Source: an uncultured Planctomycetales bacterium
Lineage (GTDB): Bacteria > Omnitrophota > Gorgyraeia > Zapsychrales > JANLHA01
Assembly: GCA_964595465.1 (NCBI GenBank)
Contig: CAZQQI010000010.1
Span: 1-60,265 of the forward strand
Length of the DNA stretch: 60,265 nucleotides
Direction of reading: 5' to 3'
The translations under genes and the position numbers were made by a program. The stretch's first letter is position 1. The number at the start of each line of letters is the position of its first letter. Below the pieces are notes generated by a model. It had not been told where the DNA came from and searched no databases. It saw only the letters and a list, made by a program, of their open reading frames with translations. Below, piece by piece: positions 1-11,044 of the stretch.

Positions 1-18
1 AATTTTCGGGAATTCTAA

Positions 19-576
19 TTGTCGTCAACAGGGTATTATAATTGTCGCTCATCACTGATAATCACTGATTTCGACATAAAGAGAGAAAAGGCTGAAAAAG
101 ACAGTTGCCTGCAGATCACAGACTTGAAAGACAGGCAGACTACTAATAAAACGATTGCCAACTATAATCCCGAAAAAGAAAAAATTGATAATATTAAAGG
201 GTGTTTTGATTGCGAGAATATATACGTTGTGTTTCAGTTTGAAGCGCTCGAAGGATATTATGCGACAAGTTTTGAAGAGGCGTTCATACTTTCTAATTAC
301 AATAACGATATTTTAAATAAGGCTTTATCGGTTGTGAAGCCGGGAATCTATAAAGAAATTGTCGGAGATCCCGCTGACAGGAACAAATTGAAGGAGGAAT
401 CTTATAAGTTGCAAAGCAGGCTTTCTAAGAGCAAAAGCGATTTTTCAAATGAATTGTTGTATGAAATGGTGATTTGTGAAGACCAGGATGCTATACCTGC
501 CCTGCCAAAATATATAGCGGATGGATTGGACTGGCTGCGTGATTCCCTTAAAAAACAGCTAAATGGGGGAGAGTAG
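19..576 (+). CDS. C-terminal TOPRIM-like part of an OLD-family (GajA-like) nuclease; partial or disrupted
   Basis: Lies 4 nt upstream of a UvrD-like helicase gene (stop 574-576, ATG 580). Has a DxD-like ITDFD near its start and a TSFEEAF segment resembling OLD/TOPRIM C-terminal motifs. The only start is TTG at 19 and there is an in-frame TAA at 16-18, so the upstream part is in another frame or off-window. Confidence 0.4.
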   Translation: MSSTGYYNCRSSLIITDFDIKREKAEKDSCLQITDLKDRQTTNKTIANYNPEKEKIDNIKGCFDCENIYVVFQFEALEGYYATSFEEAFILSNYNNDILNKALSVVKPGIYKEIVGDPADRNKLKEESYKLQSRLSKSKSDFSNELLYEMVICEDQDAIPALPKYIADGLDWLRDSLKKQLNGGE

Positions 577-579
577 ACA

Positions 580-2961
580 ATGAGTTTATCAAAAATGTCC
601 CCTGCTTATCAAAGGGAAGAGCTTGCAGTCCAAGCCCTTATTAATTCTCACATTGACAAGAATGAAAGCCTTGTTTTTAGTGCAGGAGCAGGAGCAGGAA
701 AGACATATGCTTTAACTGAGAGCTTAAAGCATATTATAAACGTGCATGGTGATAGGTTGGTGCGGCACAATCAAAAGGTAATTTGTATTACTTATACTAA
801 CGTTGCAACGAATGAAATCAAAGAACGTCTCGGGAACTCTGGTCTTGTCAAGGTTTCGACTATCCACGAAAGAATATGGGACTTGATTTATGGCTATCAA
901 AAGGAGCTTGTCAATATACATGTCGAAAAGCTTCAGGAAGAATTTGAACGTCTTAATTCTGACTTATACGACAGCATGGAAGAAAAAGAAGCGAAGCAAT
1001 TTAAAGCTTATCGTGAACTTTCTGATGTCGAAAAAGATGATTTCAGGACTGTGATTATAAATAATAAAAAGGAGTTTTTTAGGGCTTATGACAAACCTGC
1101 AAAAGAGTTTAAGTCTGCTCTTGAAAGCTTTATAGGGCAACATGTCGGTCTTTTAAGTAACGTGTCAAATTTTAAAAAGACAGTTAATACAATTTTCAGG
1201 ATTGAAAACTACAAGGATTGCTTGCAGAAAATTGACGAGGGAAAGGAAGGGTATGTCGGGGTTCGGTATGATGATAAATATAATCGTGACGTCCTGCATA
1301 GGATGATAATAAGCCATGACACCTTGCTTGAATATGCTCTTAAAATGGTTGAGAATCACGACTTGCTTAAGCGGGTTATTCTTGATAGTTACCCGTATAT
1401 GCTTATTGATGAATACCAGGATACTAATAAGCATGTGGTTGAAATAATGAGGCTTATTGAAGATTATTCAAAGAGCATTAAACGTAAGCTTTTTGTTGGG
1501 TATTTTGGGGATTCAGCTCAAAATATTTATGAAGACGGAGTTGGCAGCGAGCTGTTGTCTGTTCATCCAGGATTACAGGTTGTGAATAAGCAGTTCAATC
1601 GCAGGTCTCACTCCGAAATAATAGATGTCATAAACGAAATCAGGGCTGATGAGATAAAACAGAAGTCTATCTTTGAAGACTGTGACGGCGGGACTGTTAG
1701 GTTTTACACTGGGACAGATGAGAATAAGCAGCAATTCATAGAGGAATACAAAAAAAAGTGGGGAATCAATTCGGAAAATAAGCTTCATTGTTTGGTTTTG
1801 TTGAATAAATTTGTTGCAGAGTTTAATGGCTTTCCCGACATATACAGGTGTTTTGCGGATACTTCTTACTACAAGATTAATTATGATCTCCTGAACAATG
1901 AACTGCTCAGTAACGATTTGGCAAAACTTGGGGAAATTCCGAATTTATTTTATCGGATTCTTCAGTTTATTGACGACCTGAATGATAGTGGCACCCCGAT
2001 AACTAATTTTATTAACAAAAAGATTTATTCAAGAATGACTTTTAAGAAGATGAAAGAGCTGGTTTCTGTGTCAAAAAGTCTTAAGGGCGATTCGTTGGGC
2101 GAATACGTTGAGAATATCTTTGGGCAATATGTAAGTTCAGGAAATAGAGATTACATTAAGGTAATTAAAGAATTAATCGGTCTTGAGCGGTGTTCGCATC
2201 ATGATTTTACAAATCACCTTCTTGATAAGTTGTTTTTCAACATAGGAAACGGGAGGTGGGAAGAGTTTAAGCTTATGGTTTTTGAGCTGTTTGAGAGCGA
2301 TTTATTCTCAGAGGTGGACGAAAAAGAAATTGAACGGTTTAAATTGAAATTAGATGATTTTTTTGATGGAGAATATTTTTCGTCCATCGATATTCAGGAA
2401 GCGAATGACTTTAAGCAAAGGCTTGATGATTTCATAAAAGAACAAAAAATGTCCAGCATAAAGCCAAAAATTATGGATATGTTTATGAAAAAAATAGACG
2501 AAATTTTTAGAAATCAGATAATATCTTTGATAGATAAGGATGAGGTAGAAGTAGCTAAAACAAAGCTGGACGAACTCTTAGACATAGGATTAGATCAGTG
2601 GGGAATCTGGTATAATTTCATAAATAATAAACAAAAGTCGGAGGTTGAATATCATACTTATCATGGGACGAAAGGTGCTGAGTATGATAACGTCATAATC
2701 ATTATGGAAAATGATTTTGGGCGGATGAACAAGAACAAATTTTCTTCTTTCTTTAAGAATCGCAAGGATCTATCTGTCTTAGGGGAAGAAGAGCTGTTCA
2801 AATTCAATAATACAAAAAACTTGCTGTATGTTTCATGTTCCAGAGCAATTAAGAACCTGCGCATTTTATATCTGGATGACATTTCTGAGTTTAAGGACAG
2901 TATCGAAAGTATATTCGGACAAACAAGCATTTATGAACCCGATACAGTAAAGCTTGAATAA
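580..2961 (+). CDS. UvrD/Rep-type SF1 helicase (GajB-like), 793 aa, with a large internal insert
   Basis: Motifs seen: SAGAGAGKTYAL (Walker A), ITYTNVATNEIKERL (Ia), LIDEYQDTN (II), FGDSAQNIY (III), NRRSHSEI (IV), HGTKGAEYDNVIII (V) and LLYVSCSRAIKNL (VI). A D/E/K-rich helical insert of roughly 290 aa lies between motifs IV and V. Confidence 0.85.
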   Translation: MSLSKMSPAYQREELAVQALINSHIDKNESLVFSAGAGAGKTYALTESLKHIINVHGDRLVRHNQKVICITYTNVATNEIKERLGNSGLVKVSTIHERIWDLIYGYQKELVNIHVEKLQEEFERLNSDLYDSMEEKEAKQFKAYRELSDVEKDDFRTVIINNKKEFFRAYDKPAKEFKSALESFIGQHVGLLSNVSNFKKTVNTIFRIENYKDCLQKIDEGKEGYVGVRYDDKYNRDVLHRMIISHDTLLEYALKMVENHDLLKRVILDSYPYMLIDEYQDTNKHVVEIMRLIEDYSKSIKRKLFVGYFGDSAQNIYEDGVGSELLSVHPGLQVVNKQFNRRSHSEIIDVINEIRADEIKQKSIFEDCDGGTVRFYTGTDENKQQFIEEYKKKWGINSENKLHCLVLLNKFVAEFNGFPDIYRCFADTSYYKINYDLLNNELLSNDLAKLGEIPNLFYRILQFIDDLNDSGTPITNFINKKIYSRMTFKKMKELVSVSKSLKGDSLGEYVENIFGQYVSSGNRDYIKVIKELIGLERCSHHDFTNHLLDKLFFNIGNGRWEEFKLMVFELFESDLFSEVDEKEIERFKLKLDDFFDGEYFSSIDIQEANDFKQRLDDFIKEQKMSSIKPKIMDMFMKKIDEIFRNQIISLIDKDEVEVAKTKLDELLDIGLDQWGIWYNFINNKQKSEVEYHTYHGTKGAEYDNVIIIMENDFGRMNKNKFSSFFKNRKDLSVLGEEELFKFNNTKNLLYVSCSRAIKNLRILYLDDISEFKDSIESIFGQTSIYEPDTVKLE

Positions 2962-3083
2962 TAAATGGTGTCGTTTCTGGTAAAATGTTTATTTTCAATT
3001 AGTTAAGTTTGATTTTTTGTTTCGGAAAAATGAAATATAAGTTGTTGTTATTGTGACATTTATGAGAAACGACACCATTTTTT
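2960..3083. repeat. 124-nt dyad-symmetric repeat, copy 1
   Basis: Identical to 3466-3589 except one position (3058 a versus 3564 g) by manual alignment. The 16-nt termini aaatggtgtcgtttct (2963-2978) and agaaacgacaccattt (3065-3080) are perfect inverted repeats. The repeat starts at the helicase stop codon. Confidence 0.9.
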
Positions 3084-3146
3084 GCCATTTTTTGAAAAGC
3101 GGTGAGGGCTTTTAAATTCAATTCTTGTAAAATAAGGAGTGAAGAA

Positions 3147-3452
3147 ATGATTAATTTATCGGGACTCGAAATATTTTTTATTGTTACAACGATAATTTCT
3201 TTAGTAGTCAATATTATTCAATTTATTAAAATCTCCCCAATTTATAATGGTCTTTGCGGCTTAATGAATGATTGCCGAGTCAAAGCGAAATATTATACTA
3301 ATAATCCAAAGAATGAAGAGATCAACAAGAAAATTGTTGCTGATTTGGATGGTTTTGGACAACAGATTTATGGCTTATTAAAAACCATAAGAGAAAAAGA
3401 TAAAACTTTTTGTGCATATTCGGTTTTACAAGAAACAAAATTTAATCAATAA
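3147..3452 (+). CDS. Small single-pass membrane protein (101 aa from the ATG), unknown function
   Basis: AAGGAG at 3134-3139 lies 7 nt before ATG 3147. There is an N-terminal hydrophobic helix (LEIFFIVTTIISLVVNIIQFI) followed by a charged helical tail. The track ORF from GTG 3102 lacks an RBS. Confidence 0.5.
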   Translation: MINLSGLEIFFIVTTIISLVVNIIQFIKISPIYNGLCGLMNDCRVKAKYYTNNPKNEEINKKIVADLDGFGQQIYGLLKTIREKDKTFCAYSVLQETKFNQ

Positions 3453-3623
3453 ATGGTGTCGTTTCAATAAATGGTGTCGTTTCTGGTAAAATGTTTATTT
3501 TCAATTAGTTAAGTTTGATTTTTTGTTTCGGAAAAATGAAATATAAGTTGTTGTTATTGTGACGTTTATGAGAAACGACACCATTTTTTATTGTGACGTT
3601 TATGAGAAACGACACCATTTTTT
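3448..3623. repeat. 124-nt dyad repeat, copy 2 (core 3466-3589), with both termini tandemly duplicated
   Basis: The left 18-mer aataaatggtgtcgtttc occurs twice (3448-3465, 3466-3483). The right 34-mer attgtgacgtttatgagaaacgacaccatttttt occurs twice (3556-3589, 3590-3623). The stop codon of the small ORF (3450-3452) lies inside the first 18-mer. Confidence 0.9.
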
Positions 3624-3670
3624 CGATTTATCATATATCAAAATGATCGACTTTTTTATAAGGATTTTAA

Positions 3671-4387
3671 TTGAATAATGATTTAAATAAAAAAATTGAG
3701 TTATACTTTTTCGATTCTTCAAGCCCCCCGGAAGAGTACCAAAATTTTTATATTGATCATTTCAGTCAGAATATTACTGATTTTAATAATTATGTTTGTC
3801 GCTTTTCCCCACTGTATCAAGTCTTGAGAGATATTAAGTATTCTTTTGGCCATCTGAAAGGATTGCCCACAAAATTTGATTATCCATATAAAGCTGGAAT
3901 CATATTGATCAATATTGTATTGCACATAATAGCGAAAGACATTTATGGAATAAAATTGGGTAAAGGAGAAAAAACAAAAAAATTTATTCATGATTTTATG
4001 GGACTGGATTATGGGTCGGCGGAAGGTTTGAGATTTCTTCGTAATGCCTTAGAACATAGAGGATATACGTTATTTTATGAGGATACTCGAACCATTGAGA
4101 TTGGAACGGTTAAGCATAAAGAAAAAATAAAGTGTAATTTTTTATTTACTTTGGACCAAAACGTTGTTCTTCAAGTTAATTGTGATCAGGATGGAACAAG
4201 ACATTATCGAATCCAACCACGAAAACTTTTTACATTATTATTTAAGAGTGTAAAAAATTTAAAAAATGATTTATTGAGTGGGGGACGAGAAAGAGAAATT
4301 TCAATTTTTAAGAAAAGTTTTAATCCTGAAAGGTGGGTTGGGAGGCCGACTTCTTTGAATTTTAAGGTTGATTTAAAGAAATCCTAA
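3671..4387 (+). CDS. Hypothetical protein with an Rx4H (HEPN/Abi-like) motif, 238 aa
   Basis: TTG start preceded by AAGGA. The motif LRFLRNALEHRGY (R124-H129, nt 4040-4057) fits the HEPN RNase signature R-N-x3-H. I recognised no other family. Confidence 0.45.
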   Translation: MNNDLNKKIELYFFDSSSPPEEYQNFYIDHFSQNITDFNNYVCRFSPLYQVLRDIKYSFGHLKGLPTKFDYPYKAGIILINIVLHIIAKDIYGIKLGKGEKTKKFIHDFMGLDYGSAEGLRFLRNALEHRGYTLFYEDTRTIEIGTVKHKEKIKCNFLFTLDQNVVLQVNCDQDGTRHYRIQPRKLFTLLFKSVKNLKNDLLSGGREREISIFKKSFNPERWVGRPTSLNFKVDLKKS

Positions 4388-4469
4388 GGATGATTCATTA
4401 AGTAAGGTTAATTCATTGTTTTGAGATTGTAGCCAGTTGCAAAACTCGTCCACTTGGGGGAGTTTCTAT

Positions 4470-4522
4470 AAGCCCTCTGTAATTGTTTAGAAATAAACAT
4501 GTTATGGAGGGCTTCTTTTTTA
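4470..4522 (+). terminator. Candidate intrinsic terminator after the HEPN-like ORF
   Basis: 8-bp stem aagccctc/gagggctt with a long loop, followed by cttttttt. Confidence 0.4.
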
Positions 4523-4567
4523 CCAGTTGTAACAAGCGAACAAATGATGCATGTTTTAAAATAGTGC

Positions 4568-4595
4568 TTGACATTTTGATTTCATATGTTAGAGT
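4568..4595 (+). promoter_or_regulatory. Sigma70-like promoter for the DtxR-family gene
   Basis: TTGACA (4568-4573), 16-nt spacer, TAGAGT (4590-4595), about 30 nt upstream of ATG 4626. Confidence 0.45.
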
Positions 4596-4625
4596 GTTCC
4601 AAAATTTATTGATGATTCGAACTTT

Positions 4626-5129
4626 ATGCTTATGGAAAACACGACAAATAATTTAAGTTCAACAATGGAAGATTATCTCGAGGCCATCTACACCTTGAAA
4701 GAGGATGGCGGTGTCGCGCGAGTCGGTGAAATCGCAAAAAAGTTGAATGTACAAAGTTCAACGGTCAATTCTGCTATTAAGAATTTGACTGAACAAAATT
4801 TGGTTATTCATGAAAAATATGGTTATGTATCACTAACGAAAGAAGGTGATAAGCTGGCCGCGGAGGTCAAAGGAAAGCATGATATTTTGTTTCGGTTTCT
4901 TACGGAATTTTTAATGCTCAATGCCGAGGCAGCTGAAAAAGAAGCGTGCTGTATTGAACATGCCATCAGCAAAGAGACATTTATTCGTCTAACCAAGTTT
5001 TTTTCATTTTTAGAGCAAGGCTTCACTGATGAGAAGCCAAAAATATTACAATTATTTGAGGTGTATTTAAAAACAGGAAAACGTATGAAATGTGACTGTG
5101 AAGATAGAGATTGTCACAATAATAAGTAA
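4626..5129 (+). CDS. DtxR/MntR-family metal-dependent transcriptional repressor
   Basis: N-terminus MEDYLEAIYTLKE..GVARVGEIAKKLNVQSSTVNSAIKNL is a typical DtxR winged HTH. A dimerisation region follows, and the tail is Cys/His-rich (CDCEDRDCH). The gene lies directly upstream of feoAB. Confidence 0.85.
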   Translation: MLMENTTNNLSSTMEDYLEAIYTLKEDGGVARVGEIAKKLNVQSSTVNSAIKNLTEQNLVIHEKYGYVSLTKEGDKLAAEVKGKHDILFRFLTEFLMLNAEAAEKEACCIEHAISKETFIRLTKFFSFLEQGFTDEKPKILQLFEVYLKTGKRMKCDCEDRDCHNNK

Positions 5130-5138
5130 TATTTTTTT

Positions 5139-5152
5139 TAACTTAAAAGTTA
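5139..5152. promoter_or_regulatory. Candidate operator palindrome TAACTT-aa-AAGTTA upstream of feoA
   Basis: Perfect 6-2-6 inverted repeat 46 nt upstream of the feoA ATG. A near-identical site is at 7907-7920. Confidence 0.4.
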
Positions 5153-5197
5153 GATTAGTCGAAGTTTTTTATAACATTCTAAAAGAGGTGATTGATA

Positions 5198-5428
5198 ATG
5201 GAAAAAATAAGTGATTTAAAACCAGGTGATAAAGGCAAAATTAGAAAGATTGAAGCTTCCAGTAACCTAAGGAGAAAGCTACTAGATATGGGAATCATCC
5301 CGGGATCTCCATTTGAAATTGTTAAACTTGCTCCTTTGGGTGATCCGGTAGATGTCAAAATTAAGGGATACCACTTGTCATTGCGCAAGGAAGAAGCCGC
5401 GACAGTCTCGGTTGAAGTGGAGGGATGA
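5198..5428 (+). CDS. feoA: FeoA-family ferrous iron transport protein
   Basis: Small SH3-like protein (LKPGDKGKIRKI...LLDMGIIPGSPFEIV). AGAGGTG RBS lies 7 nt before ATG 5198. Confidence 0.85.
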   Translation: MEKISDLKPGDKGKIRKIEASSNLRRKLLDMGIIPGSPFEIVKLAPLGDPVDVKIKGYHLSLRKEEAATVSVEVEG

Positions 5429-9820: not shown

Positions 9821-11044
9821 ATGTACATCAAACGACTTCTTGAGAAAAGCCTGAACGATTCGGTCAAAACATTTCCGGTCTTGTTGATTACAGGGCCCCG
9901 CCAGTCAGGAAAGACAACACTTGTCCAGCATGTATTGGGACGAAAATATCAGTATGTGTCCTTGGATGAATTAGATGTTCGCAGTCTTGCCATTGAAGAT
10001 CCCAGGGCCTTTCTGCAGCAGTTTTCCGCGCCGATTATCATTGATGAAATTCAAAACGCTCCGGACTTATTGTCTTATATTAAGGCGTTAGTTGATAAGG
10101 ATAGAAAGCCTGGTCAGTGGGTATTGACCGGGTCGCAGCAGTTTCCATTAATGCGTAATGTGAGCGAGTCATTGGCGGGGCGTGTTGCCGTATTGACGTT
10201 ATATCCTTTTGCTTTGGACGAAATGACCGGGAGATTGCGTCCCGCGCTTGATCAGGCAAGCGAGTATATTCTTTCTTTGATGAGGGAGAAGTCAGTAAAA
10301 AAGGGCTCGTTGTCGGTAGGGCAATGGCTTTTGAATGGCGGGTATCCGGAGATTTTTGTTAATAAAGAGGTGATAAAAAAAATATGGTTTTCGAGTTATG
10401 TGCAGACTTATATTGACCGTGATGTGCGGGGAAATATTCGGACGGCAAATTTAAATGATTTTGAACGTTTTATTCGGGTATTGGCGGCACGGACGTCTCA
10501 GGAGTTGAACTATTCCACGATTTCCCGGGAGATTGGCGTAACCGTCCCGACAATCAAATCATGGGTTTCTTTTCTAGAGGCGAGTTCATTGATCTATTTG
10601 CTTTATCCGTATCATAAGAATTTAGGCAAGCGTGTTATTAAATCGCCGAAATGTTATTTTATGGATACGGGATTGGTGTCGTTTTTGGTCGGCCTGCAAG
10701 ATGAGGCGCATTTGCTGAGTGGCCCGATGGCCGGGGCCTTATTTGAAACGGCGTGTGTTACCCAGTTTGTTAAAAGGTTCTCGGCCTTAATGGATGCGTG
10801 TTCTTTATATTTTTATCGCAGCGTAGACGGGCTTGAGGTGGATCTTTTAATTGAAACGGCAGACGGCATATTTCCAGTTGAGATGAAGAGTTCTTCGACT
10901 TTAACAGCGAAACACGCAGGCGGGCTGCAGGCATGGTTAAGATTATCTGAACAAAAGCAGGATAAAGGGCTGATTGTTTCGACCTCTGAGCGACAAGGGC
11001 TGATCACATCAAATATCAGCAATTGTCATTTCTCATTGTTGTAG
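9821..11044 (+). CDS. AAA ATPase of the DUF4143/COG1373 type (copy 1)
   Basis: Walker A GPRQSGKTT, Walker B IIIDEIQ, and a C-terminal region typical of DUF4143 ATPases. It is a paralogue of 19321-20538. Confidence 0.8.
   Translation: MYIKRLLEKSLNDSVKTFPVLLITGPRQSGKTTLVQHVLGRKYQYVSLDELDVRSLAIEDPRAFLQQFSAPIIIDEIQNAPDLLSYIKALVDKDRKPGQWVLTGSQQFPLMRNVSESLAGRVAVLTLYPFALDEMTGRLRPALDQASEYILSLMREKSVKKGSLSVGQWLLNGGYPEIFVNKEVIKKIWFSSYVQTYIDRDVRGNIRTANLNDFERFIRVLAARTSQELNYSTISREIGVTVPTIKSWVSFLEASSLIYLLYPYHKNLGKRVIKSPKCYFMDTGLVSFLVGLQDEAHLLSGPMAGALFETACVTQFVKRFSALMDACSLYFYRSVDGLEVDLLIETADGIFPVEMKSSSTLTAKHAGGLQAWLRLSEQKQDKGLIVSTSERQGLITSNISNCHFSLL

Follow-up and report, generated by a model that had tools for sequence, protein, structure and literature searches.

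Two near-identical 124-nt repeat units lie downstream of gajB in the stretch of DNA analysed here (the window, 60,265 nt, which begins at base 1 of contig C10). Each of them is very probably a miniature, gene-less and non-autonomous derivative of a Y1/HUH (RAYT/TIRYT-class) transposase element. The same termini of about 22 nt stand in inverted orientation on both sides of a RAYT (Y1/HUH) gene in four further genomes, most of which are Candidatus Omnitrophota MAGs. Because these termini bracket RAYT genes elsewhere, the window units can be read as the left and right ends of the element minus its gene, and such gene-less, joined ends point to miniature elements of the REPIN or TIR-doublet type. 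A MITE was one of several options offered in the original prediction, and it is essentially right, in that the units are inverted, non-autonomous doublets formed from the two ends of a Y1 (RAYT/TIRYT-type) element. Counted against this explanation are the absence of a matching RAYT from the assembly, the presence of the unit in only two full copies, and single ends that neither fold nor carry a tag.

Repeat units and their genomic setting

The units are located among the genes of a Gabija defence system and two small ORFs at the beginning of the window (Table 1). The match of GajA to PADLOC model PDLC00065 (E = 1.5e-43) covers positions 498-668 of the 670 in the model. The GC content is 28-38% over bases 1-5200 versus 51% genome-wide, and GajB/Gabija is absent from all other genomes of the order (167/167). 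The low-GC, Gabija-carrying stretch was probably acquired horizontally. The bracketed 101-aa ORF is a real though rare gene that lies outside the element. It has no Pfam or PADLOC match; 8 homologues were found, the best two with 76% and 53% identity. The 238-aa ORF, which also has no Pfam or PADLOC match, is not part of the element.

Table 1. Coordinates of the repeat units, their end structures and the neighbouring genes in the window.
Feature	Position	Strand	Basis and remarks
GajA C-terminal part (OLD-family nuclease of Gabija)	19..576	+	Cut by contig start; context
GajB (UvrD-type helicase of Gabija)	580..2961	+	PADLOC E = 5.9e-259; Pfam UvrD-helicase 5e-24
Repeat copy 1	2960-3083	.	124-nt inverted doublet, very probably a REPIN-type miniature element
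Copy 1 left end module	~2960-3020		Alignment of both arms to ~60-nt module family
Copy 1 right end module	~3021-3083		Alignment of both arms to ~60-nt module family
Copy 1 TIRs	2960-2984 and 3059-3083		Repeat search
Tip mini-duplication CCATTTTTTG x2	3075-3094	.	Right edge of copy 1; read directly in sequence
Bracketed 101-aa ORF	3147..3452	+	N-terminal hydrophobic helix
Tandem extra left tip of copy 2	3448-3465 (= 3466-3483)	.	18 nt; repeat search and direct reading
Repeat copy 2	3466-3589	.	Same 124-nt doublet, 99%; single mismatch A>G at 3574
Tandem extra right end of copy 2	3590-3623 (= 3556-3589)	.	34 nt; repeat search
238-aa ORF with RNALEH (Rx4H) motif	3671..4387	+	ORF list; motif read in translation; context

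Most of the anatomy given in the original prediction was recovered. The repeat search returns the two 124-nt copies with their one-base difference as a family of 99% identity. The perfect 16-nt terminal repeats, AAATGGTGTCGTTTCT / AGAAACGACACCATTT, are present and lie inside 25-nt arms of 88% complementarity; the ends of the unit read AATAAATGGTG ... CACCATTTTTT, and the tip reads AAATGGTGTCGTTTC. All six predicted occurrences of a 14-mer are found as exact AATGGTGTCGTTTC, on the plus strand at 2964, 3452 and 3470 and on the minus strand at 3066, 3572 and 3606. When up to two mismatches are allowed, the window has 7 matches versus 0.6 expected, the seventh being at 10672, and a count of 7 is reached in 0 of 100 shuffles. 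The duplicated termini were also confirmed: copy 2 has 18 nt on its left and 34 nt on its right, and copy 1 has 10 nt at its right edge. The same holds for the claim that the upstream genes stop at the repeats: copy 1 begins inside the TAA of GajB (2959-2961), and the stop TAA of the small ORF (3450-3452) falls within the additional left tip of copy 2. The predicted close downstream starts are found at 3147 (ATG) and 3671 (TTG), 63 nt and 48 nt past the repeats, respectively. The genome-wide search for the 124-mer that had been proposed as a check yields 2 full copies in the whole genome, and a search of the metagenome contig collection for exact matches to the left-arm 26-mer yields 0.

The predicted fold differs from that originally described, a hairpin with a loop of about 80 nt. 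Pairing runs along the full length of the unit, with 44 pairs between the halves, and produces one long end-to-end hairpin with an apical loop of 6-8 nt. The fold energy is -21.8 kcal/mol as DNA (z = -5.5) and -42.9 kcal/mol as RNA (z = -7.1), and copy 2 folds in the same way as copy 1. Both arms align to the ends of RAYT elements in other genomes and to one module family of about 60 nt, whose tip block is AAAAAATGGTGTCGNNNCTCATAA. The remaining copies of the host genome have a second block, TACAATTAATTC, at a fixed 22-nt spacing from the tip block. Single end modules have no fold of their own (z = -1.3, -1.3 and +1.1), in comparison with another REP family of the host genome, which folds as a single unit (z = -3.4). 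On reading, the tip block contains none of GTAG, CTAC, CGTC and GACG. Since the ends are non-palindromic, the pairing of left end with right end would be the only structure the enzyme can use. In the doublets of other genomes, pairing is found mostly at the terminal 13-22 bp.

Several other functions were considered for the end modules. A common RNA fold of single modules was looked for, and none was found. The tip was also considered as a shared gene start, with an SD-like GGAGAA and the reading ATG AGA TCC GAC ACC ATT (MRSDTIF); this was rejected because the ORFs that follow the tips are wholly different or stop at once. The second block, TAnnnT-TAATTC, was considered as an inward -10 box; it has no -35 element and stands in mixed orientation to the neighbouring genes, so that at most it may serve the transposase gene as a promoter facing inward. 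Comparison by eye with the consensus of sigma-54 and dif/Xer sites gave no fit.

Ends and transposase genes in the host and in other genomes

In the host genome (G000), the end pattern has 21 matches at up to two mismatches, and the reversed-pattern control has 0. Every one of the 21 is extragenic, lying outside long ORFs or touching them by no more than 41 nt. About 18 are resident ends of the CGGATC type, mostly decayed singlets (14 singlets and 2 doublets). The exact CGTTTC tip occurs in the host genome in the window only. The host assembly has no cognate RAYT flanked by such ends; it is 97% complete, so that a missed copy is possible. The host has two RAYT-like genes, on C2 and C28, with 37% identity and scores below the NCBIfam cut-off, and both are flanked by repeats different from the window ends. 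A palindromic family, GGTGACAGCGACC, is present in 28 copies around the C28 gene, and the GGGGWSAS motif is found only on the unrelated C2 element, as GGGGACAC.

The CGTTTC tip is a widespread variant among other Omnitrophota MAGs, and identical tips occur in at least 10 other MAGs. The transposase-linked arrangement is seen in the Candidatus Omnitrophota contig JAGLHE010000167 (G006:C76; L008/L021), where inverted CGTTTC-tipped modules surround a 230-aa ORF. In Pfam, this ORF matches Y1_Tnp (2.8e-17), and on NCBIfam NF047646, named 'REP-associated tyrosine transposase', it scores 82.2 bits (cut-off 80). The same flanking arrangement is found for three further orthologues, with 63-66% identity (L033, L040 and L048, the last on a 1.34-Mb contig of G037), and the two of them scored on NF047646 reach 86.9 and 82.0 bits against the same cut-off. 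The sole PDB match of the transposase is E. coli TnpA-REP (4ER8), with the HVH/HMH (HUH) and YI..NP (Y...NP) motifs aligned. Wherever a gene was found to lie between inverted tips alone, it is this Y1 transposase.

The transposase is 230-234 aa long, and its length in excess of E. coli TnpA-REP is due to a C-terminal extension of about 90 aa. No Pfam HTH is found in the extension even at E <= 10; its sole match is a weak AT_hook hit (E = 0.49) to the RGRPR tail.

Only the terminal 22 nt or so are conserved between genomes, while the interiors differ. Other genomes have near-identical doublets of their own, 136-202 nt long, which have only the tips in common with the window unit, and the same ends occur there in unrelated contexts. 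The number of ends varies from 1 to about 20 per genome, with a patchy distribution across the order. Tip duplications like CCATTTTTTG x2 recur at C42 of the host genome and, in other genomes, at the right end in three RAYT elements that were examined, and tandem extra right ends are also present in L031, L033, L037 and L048.

Proposed origin and alternative readings

The full element consists of a left end module, a RAYT/TIRYT-class transposase gene and a right end module in inverted orientation. The window units are made of two end modules of about 60 nt that meet head to head, the gene being absent, which is the layout of a REPIN or a TIR dimer. In single-stranded DNA, for example on the lagging-strand template, the doublet would snap back to a long hairpin, and a transposase supplied in trans may nick and rejoin this hairpin at its outer tips, as has been demonstrated for the E. 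coli TnpA-REP and IS200/IS605 enzymes. Both copies would have come with the low-GC Gabija stretch from a low-GC, Omnitrophota-like donor that had a matching transposase. Because the assembly has no cognate transposase gene, both copies have probably become stranded passengers in this genome. The additional tips in tandem may be by-products of slippage or of repeated end processing at hairpin-prone ends. The succession of A-run, hairpin and T-run likely provides a two-way transcription stop and an mRNA-end stabiliser after gajB and the small ORF.

The original prediction also read the repeats as cassette-style recombination sites. In that case, the doublets would be the sites of a cassette platform in which a Y1/HUH or other recombinase moves 'end + small gene + end', and the 101-aa ORF would be a mobile cassette added downstream of Gabija. 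This joint proposal is quite unlikely. Near-identical doublet pairs do bracket genes in the window and in L030 (two around 2.2 kb), two doublets surround a 713-aa ORF in L031, and ends stand around single small lipoprotein-like ORFs in L033/L037. However, ends are scattered through every kind of intergenic spacer, and consequently bracketing is expected wherever their density is high. The stacked extra ends look like repeated joining events, but clusters and tandem arrays of REPINs have been described that are unrelated to cassettes (PMC3116915). In the assembled contigs of two microbial-mat runs, the same ends appear beside other flanks, as a cassette system would have it, and these flanks are absent from the G000 assembly; neither metagenome shows an excision joint or a skipped form in its contigs, in which the depth of the unit interior is about twice that of the flanks. 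Repeat ends are absent around the two closest examined homologues of the 101-aa ORF, both on contigs shorter than 1 kb. Similarly, no end follows gajB in the three closest GajB homologues (76, 73 and 68% identity), whose contigs stop 117-367 nt past the gene. Since the closest GajB and 101-aa ORF homologues are without the repeat, and other genomes have these ends in unrelated contexts, the suggested tie to defence-type genes is not upheld and no cassette unit emerges. The recombination-site claim has no positive support, given the lack of joints in the metagenome contigs.

It is very unlikely that the doublet pairs are the ends of a composite unit, in which a Y1/HUH transposase acting in trans lifts 'doublet - small gene - doublet' as single-stranded DNA and reinserts it. 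If true, this would amount to HUH-based gene-cassette shuffling by which small orphan genes, the 101-aa membrane ORF among them, are added beside defence islands.

The A-run, long stem and T-run are arranged as in a terminator, and the copies lie merely 506 nt apart, as might be expected of strong two-way intrinsic terminators locally duplicated by recombination. This reading, taken together with that of MITEs of DDE-type IS elements, is nevertheless highly improbable. A consensus terminator scan finds none at the units, which is explained by a loop and stem too long for the scan rule. Against it stand the identical tips in the other MAGs, the Y1 transposase as the only gene between inverted tips alone, and, on reading of the window sequence, flanks without a consistent target-site duplication. 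A structured non-coding RNA gene or a cis-regulatory RNA serving the adjacent defence genes, as had also been suggested, is extremely improbable: the predicted RNA hairpin is very stable and the unit stands directly after gajB and ahead of two small orphan ORFs, but Rfam gives 0 matches at gathering score across the whole window, doublet interiors are unrelated between genomes with the tips alone kept, the closest GajB loci are without the unit, and in four genomes a transposase gene lies between the tips.

The preferred reading, a miniature derivative of a Y1/HUH transposase element, disposes of a false lead, since the conspicuous repeat belongs neither to Gabija nor to the RNA genes. Genomic passengers of this kind are known, and this one probably came with a foreign defence island; it is no new RNA gene or cassette system. 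The units represent one more RAYT/TIRYT-type example, in Candidatus Omnitrophota, for which no description of such elements was found in the literature searched. Intact, near-identical doublets on a probably acquired low-GC defence stretch, with no matching transposase, suggest that such repeats can travel between lineages. This contrasts with classical REPIN populations, which are described as strictly vertical and inherited together with their RAYT. In genome annotation, the hairpins serve as markers of gene boundaries and contig breaks, and they are probably terminators.

Comparison with known systems

The layout resembles integron attC sites, in which imperfect inverted repeats of about 60-140 nt surround single small promoter-less ORFs. 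In contrast to attC sites, the ends described here have no R''/R' core sites (RYYYAAC ... GTTRRRY), a lone GTTAAGT being located in the middle of the 124-nt unit and not at an end. They are associated with a Y1 transposase instead of an IntI integrase, and the homologues of the bracketed ORF are without the repeat. Correia elements and other MITEs share a length of about 100-150 bp, TIRs of about 25 nt, an intergenic location and transcript hairpins with mRNA termination or processing. However, Correia-type elements rely on DDE-type chemistry and a TA target duplication, whereas here the partner is Y1/HUH and no consistent duplication is present.

The likeness to REPIN-RAYT systems, or REPtrons (Nunvar 2010, PMC2817692; Bertels & Rainey 2011, PMC3116915; PDB 4ER8), is closer in several respects. 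REPINs are inverted, hairpin-forming doublets that flank RAYT genes and form tandem clusters, with singlets as decayed remnants (PMC3116915). The repeat described here is likewise an inverted doublet forming a long hairpin, and inverted ends flank a RAYT-class Y1/HUH gene at four loci elsewhere, none of them in the host genome. Copies are extragenic and often placed right after stop codons; singlets, doublets and tandem clusters occur side by side; and more than one end family, with a RAYT-like gene for each, can be present in a genome. The differences are that the single ends are not palindromes and have no GTAG/GT[AG]G (or CGTC) tag, that copy numbers are low and patchy across the order, and that the window copies lie on a stretch that was probably acquired horizontally, in a genome without the cognate transposase. 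The pairing of left with right ends is also unlike REPs and IS200/IS605, in which each end forms a hairpin of its own.

TIRYT/TIRtron elements (Di Nocera et al. 2013, PMC3733652), which correspond approximately to TnpA-Y1 subclass 2.1 (Quentin et al. 2018, PMC6006769), have non-palindromic TIRs present as singles, dimers and clusters. As in these elements, a RAYT-like gene is located between long TIRs and not REP palindromes, the TIRs are moderately abundant as singles, dimers and groups, and the protein has 230-234 aa versus 165 aa in E. coli TnpA-REP. A C-terminal extension similar to Bac_DnaA_C, HTH_23 or HTH_28 is known for TIRYT proteins; here, the extension comprises about 90 aa, in which no HTH domain is detectable and only a weak AT-hook-like RGRPR tail is seen. 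The tips differ in being without GGGGWSAS, which is reported for most, though not all, TIRYT TIRs, and the proteins differ in exceeding the NCBI RAYT equivalog cut-off. Non-palindromic ends without a GTAG tag fit the TIRYT/TIRtron type better than classical REPs.

Anatomy and setting of the repeat

The 124-nt repeat is a real, non-random feature. Sequence reading and repeat analysis confirmed both copies of the original prediction at their coordinates, with a single-base difference over 124 nt, and the perfect 16-nt inverted termini lie within 25-nt terminal inverted arms in each copy. The extra termini are also present, comprising 18 nt on the left and 34 nt on the right of copy 2, and a 10-nt CCATTTTTTG that occurs twice at the right edge of copy 1. 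The count of six exact AATGGTGTCGTTTC occurrences is correct and exceeds chance: a tolerance of up to two mismatches gives seven matches (the seventh at 10672) against 0.6 expected, and none of 100 shuffles yields as many. The proposed stem with a loop of about 80 nt is wrong. The predicted fold pairs the unit end to end, with 44 pairs and an apical loop of 6-8 nt (z = -5.5 as DNA, -7.1 as RNA). Both arms align to an end module of about 60 nt, in opposite orientations and with their tips (the outer ~22 nt) facing outward; the unit is therefore an inverted doublet. Sequence reading revealed no consistent target-site duplication around the two window units.

Features of the repeat locus and other repeat sites in the host genome (positions without a contig refer to the window)
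Feature	Position	Basis
GajA C-terminal end, truncated by contig start	19-576	PADLOC 1.5e-43
GajB	580-2961	PADLOC 5.9e-259
Repeat copy 1, 124 nt	2960-3083	Sequence reading and repeat analysis
CCATTTTTTG twice, copy 1	3075-3094	
Bracketed membrane ORF, 101 aa	3147-3452	No Pfam/PADLOC match
Extra left tip of copy 2, 18 nt	3448-3465	
Repeat copy 2, 124 nt	3466-3589	Sequence reading and repeat analysis
Extra right end of copy 2, 34 nt	3590-3623	
ORF after copy 2, 238 aa	3671-4387	No Pfam/PADLOC match
CGGATC-type doublet	C7 55955-56110	
CGGATC-type doublet	C8 76599-76757	
Example GGTGACAGCGACCTTTT sites	C16:1594; C27:723/742; C55:2592/2628	

The window starts at base 1 of contig C10, in an assembly of 2.05 Mb, 64 contigs and 51% GC. 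As the first two ORFs represent the end of GajA and GajB, the repeats come after a Gabija system. The contig begins within gajA, and an in-frame TAA at 16-18 precedes the first listed start codon, so GajA is either partly assembled or disrupted; an upstream repeat may have caused the assembly break. The 238-aa ORF contains RNALEH, an Rx4H motif of HEPN type, and, judging from sequence, may form an accessory toxin-like pair with the 101-aa membrane ORF beside Gabija. Because bases 1-5200 have a GC content of 28-38%, GajB is absent from all of the order's 167 other genomes, and its nearest relatives (76-67% identity) come from metagenomic contigs and from Candidatus Omnitrophus magneticus, this Gabija-carrying stretch is most likely foreign to the host genome, G000.

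A dispersed family of end modules

The original prediction called for a search of the rest of the genome for the 124-mer. Only the two full copies in the window were found in G000, with related modules of about 60 nt elsewhere, recovered by a genome search with the core ATGGTGTCG. Each module consists of a tip block AAAAAATGGTGTCGGATCTCATAAGT, a variable spacer with a fixed length of 22 nt and a second block TACAATTAATTC; this conserved second block is an AT-rich palindrome, AATTAATT. With up to two mismatches allowed, the pattern AAAATGGTGTCGNNNCTCATAA gives 21 matches in G000, all extragenic, and none for the reversed control. Resident ends with a CGGATC-type tip account for 18 of the 21 (two doublets and 14 singlets), and the CGTTTC variant is confined to the window within G000. 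Among 401 sampled genomes of the phylum, the tip occurs in eight, G000 included, at 1-18 copies each; all but one belong to the same order. CGTTTC is the commoner variant across this sample, and CGGATC is almost unique to G000.

Other metagenome-assembled genomes (MAGs) hold doublets of 136-202 nt. These are near-identical within a genome (two each at loci L030 and L031) and share only the terminal ~22-25 nt between genomes, which marks the tips as the selected part. The exact tandem duplication of the termini, real at copy 2, is not specific to this locus. Extra ends recur at L031 in steps of 21 and 28 nt, are stacked three deep at L033/L037, and number three more right ends beside the transposase gene of L048 (G037:C1:667500-670500, positions 1999-2183); they are thus a habit of the family. 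One L048 copy brings with it the gene's final 40 codons, so end duplication can take in coding sequence. Three RAYT (REP-associated tyrosine transposase) elements have tip duplications of 10-12 nt at their right ends, and G000:C42 has one too. Such duplications would arise by slippage or repeated end processing.

The suggested tie to defence-type genes found no support. None of the three closest GajB loci has an end after gajB, a weak test because each contig runs only 117-367 nt past the gene. Eight homologues of the 101-aa ORF were found (best 76% and 53% identity), and the two examined contigs carrying them contain no repeat ends. Ends in other MAGs adjoin unrelated genes, including hemN, lipoprotein-like ORFs and Rhs-type loci. 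At L019 (5077-6800; 'Planctomycetales'-labelled MAG) and L041 (1-2650; metagenome contig), small ORFs and repeat ends are interleaved immediately after the gene for a 1620-aa Rhs/YD-type protein, and the ends seem to build up in variable regions of a toxin/immunity-like kind. A structured RNA gene is disfavoured by the lack of any Rfam match in the window and by the restriction of similarity between genomes to the tips. That the doublets and the small ORF form a shuffling cassette is very improbable.

Partner transposases and mobility

Two inverted CGTTTC-tipped modules enclose about 950 bp with one ORF in G006, a Candidatus Omnitrophota MAG from a different genus of the host's family. This ORF matches Pfam Y1_Tnp (2.8e-17) and NCBIfam NF047646, 'REP-associated tyrosine transposase' (82.2 against a curated cut-off of 80). 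In the PDB it matches E. coli TnpA-REP (4ER8) alone, and the HUH and Y...NP motifs of the two line up. With each species represented by a single genome, a scan for the exact 20-mer tip gave 18 stretches, mainly in Omnitrophota MAGs, and a metagenome scan added five. From these stretches and one further genome came three more orthologues, 63-66% identical and likewise bracketed: L033, L040 and L048 (G037, on a 1.34-Mb contig). Inverted ends flank every orthologue found with at least 63% identity, and both additional orthologues that were scored passed the RAYT cut-off. Because the same inverted ends bracket these genes, the window unit is the left and right end of a RAYT-type element without its gene. 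The MITE option of the original prediction is borne out in this form, and the repeat very probably belongs to an already known class of miniature mobile elements.

The exact tip also occurs in MAGs labelled as other phyla (L026 Microthrix, L034 Verrucomicrobiota, L019/L023/L033 'Planctomycetales'), which could reflect horizontal spread, wrongly labelled bins or contamination with foreign contigs. A basic, AT-hook-like RGRPR/GRPRGKR tail ends the transposases of L008 (the G006 locus; 2385-2402), L033, L040 and G000:C28. It falls below the Pfam AT_hook cut-off (E = 0.49) and might bind the palindromic second block.

By analogy with TnpA-REP and IS200/IS605 enzymes, the doublet would snap back on single-stranded DNA, be nicked and rejoined by the Y1 enzyme at its outer tips, and insert into intergenic DNA. 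Its A-run/hairpin/T-run layout may halt transcription both ways downstream of gajB and of the small ORF; a simple terminator scan left the units unscored, their stem and loop being above its limits.

No transposase with ends matching those of the window is present in the G000 assembly. The RAYT-like genes on C2 and C28 are 37% identical to the G006 protein and score below the NCBIfam cut-off, and their flanking repeats differ from the window ends. The two window doublets are therefore probably stranded, barring a cognate copy in the unassembled ~3%. The C28 gene is bordered on both sides (G000:C28:21300-22700) by GGTGACAGCGACCTTTT, a true palindrome with a 7-bp stem (z = -3.4) that is present 28 times in G000 when up to two mismatches are allowed. 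As this family is unrelated to that of the window, G000 has at least two separate repeat/transposase systems. The C2 gene (223 aa) lies between perfect 22-nt inverted repeats GGGACACACACCGTAACCCGAA (G000:C2:33669-34851), which contain the GGGGWSAS motif described for TIRYT elements and have no other site in G000. The locus was found in two microbial-mat metagenomes, where the assembled contigs, the only data, contain no excision joints. Interior unitig depth is about twice that of the flanks, consistent with two copies, and identical ends are also joined to different flanks that the G000 assembly lacks.

Comparison with known systems

REPIN-RAYT systems comprise hairpin-forming doublets (REPINs, inverted REP doublets), flanked RAYT genes, tandem clusters and singlets that are decayed remnants (PMC3116915; PMC5581495). 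The window family resembles them in layout and partner enzyme. Unlike classical REPs, its single ends are non-palindromic and without the GTAG tag, features that fit the TIRYT/TIRtron variant, in which RAYT-like genes lie between long TIRs that also occur singly, as dimers and in groups (PMC3733652). The family corresponds roughly to TnpA-Y1 subclass 2.1 (PMC6006769). The common GGGGWSAS motif of TIRYT is missing, however, and the ~90-aa C-terminal extension of the partner transposase shows no detectable HTH. For these reasons, the unit is filed as a RAYT/TIRYT-associated doublet working like a REPIN rather than as a strict REP.
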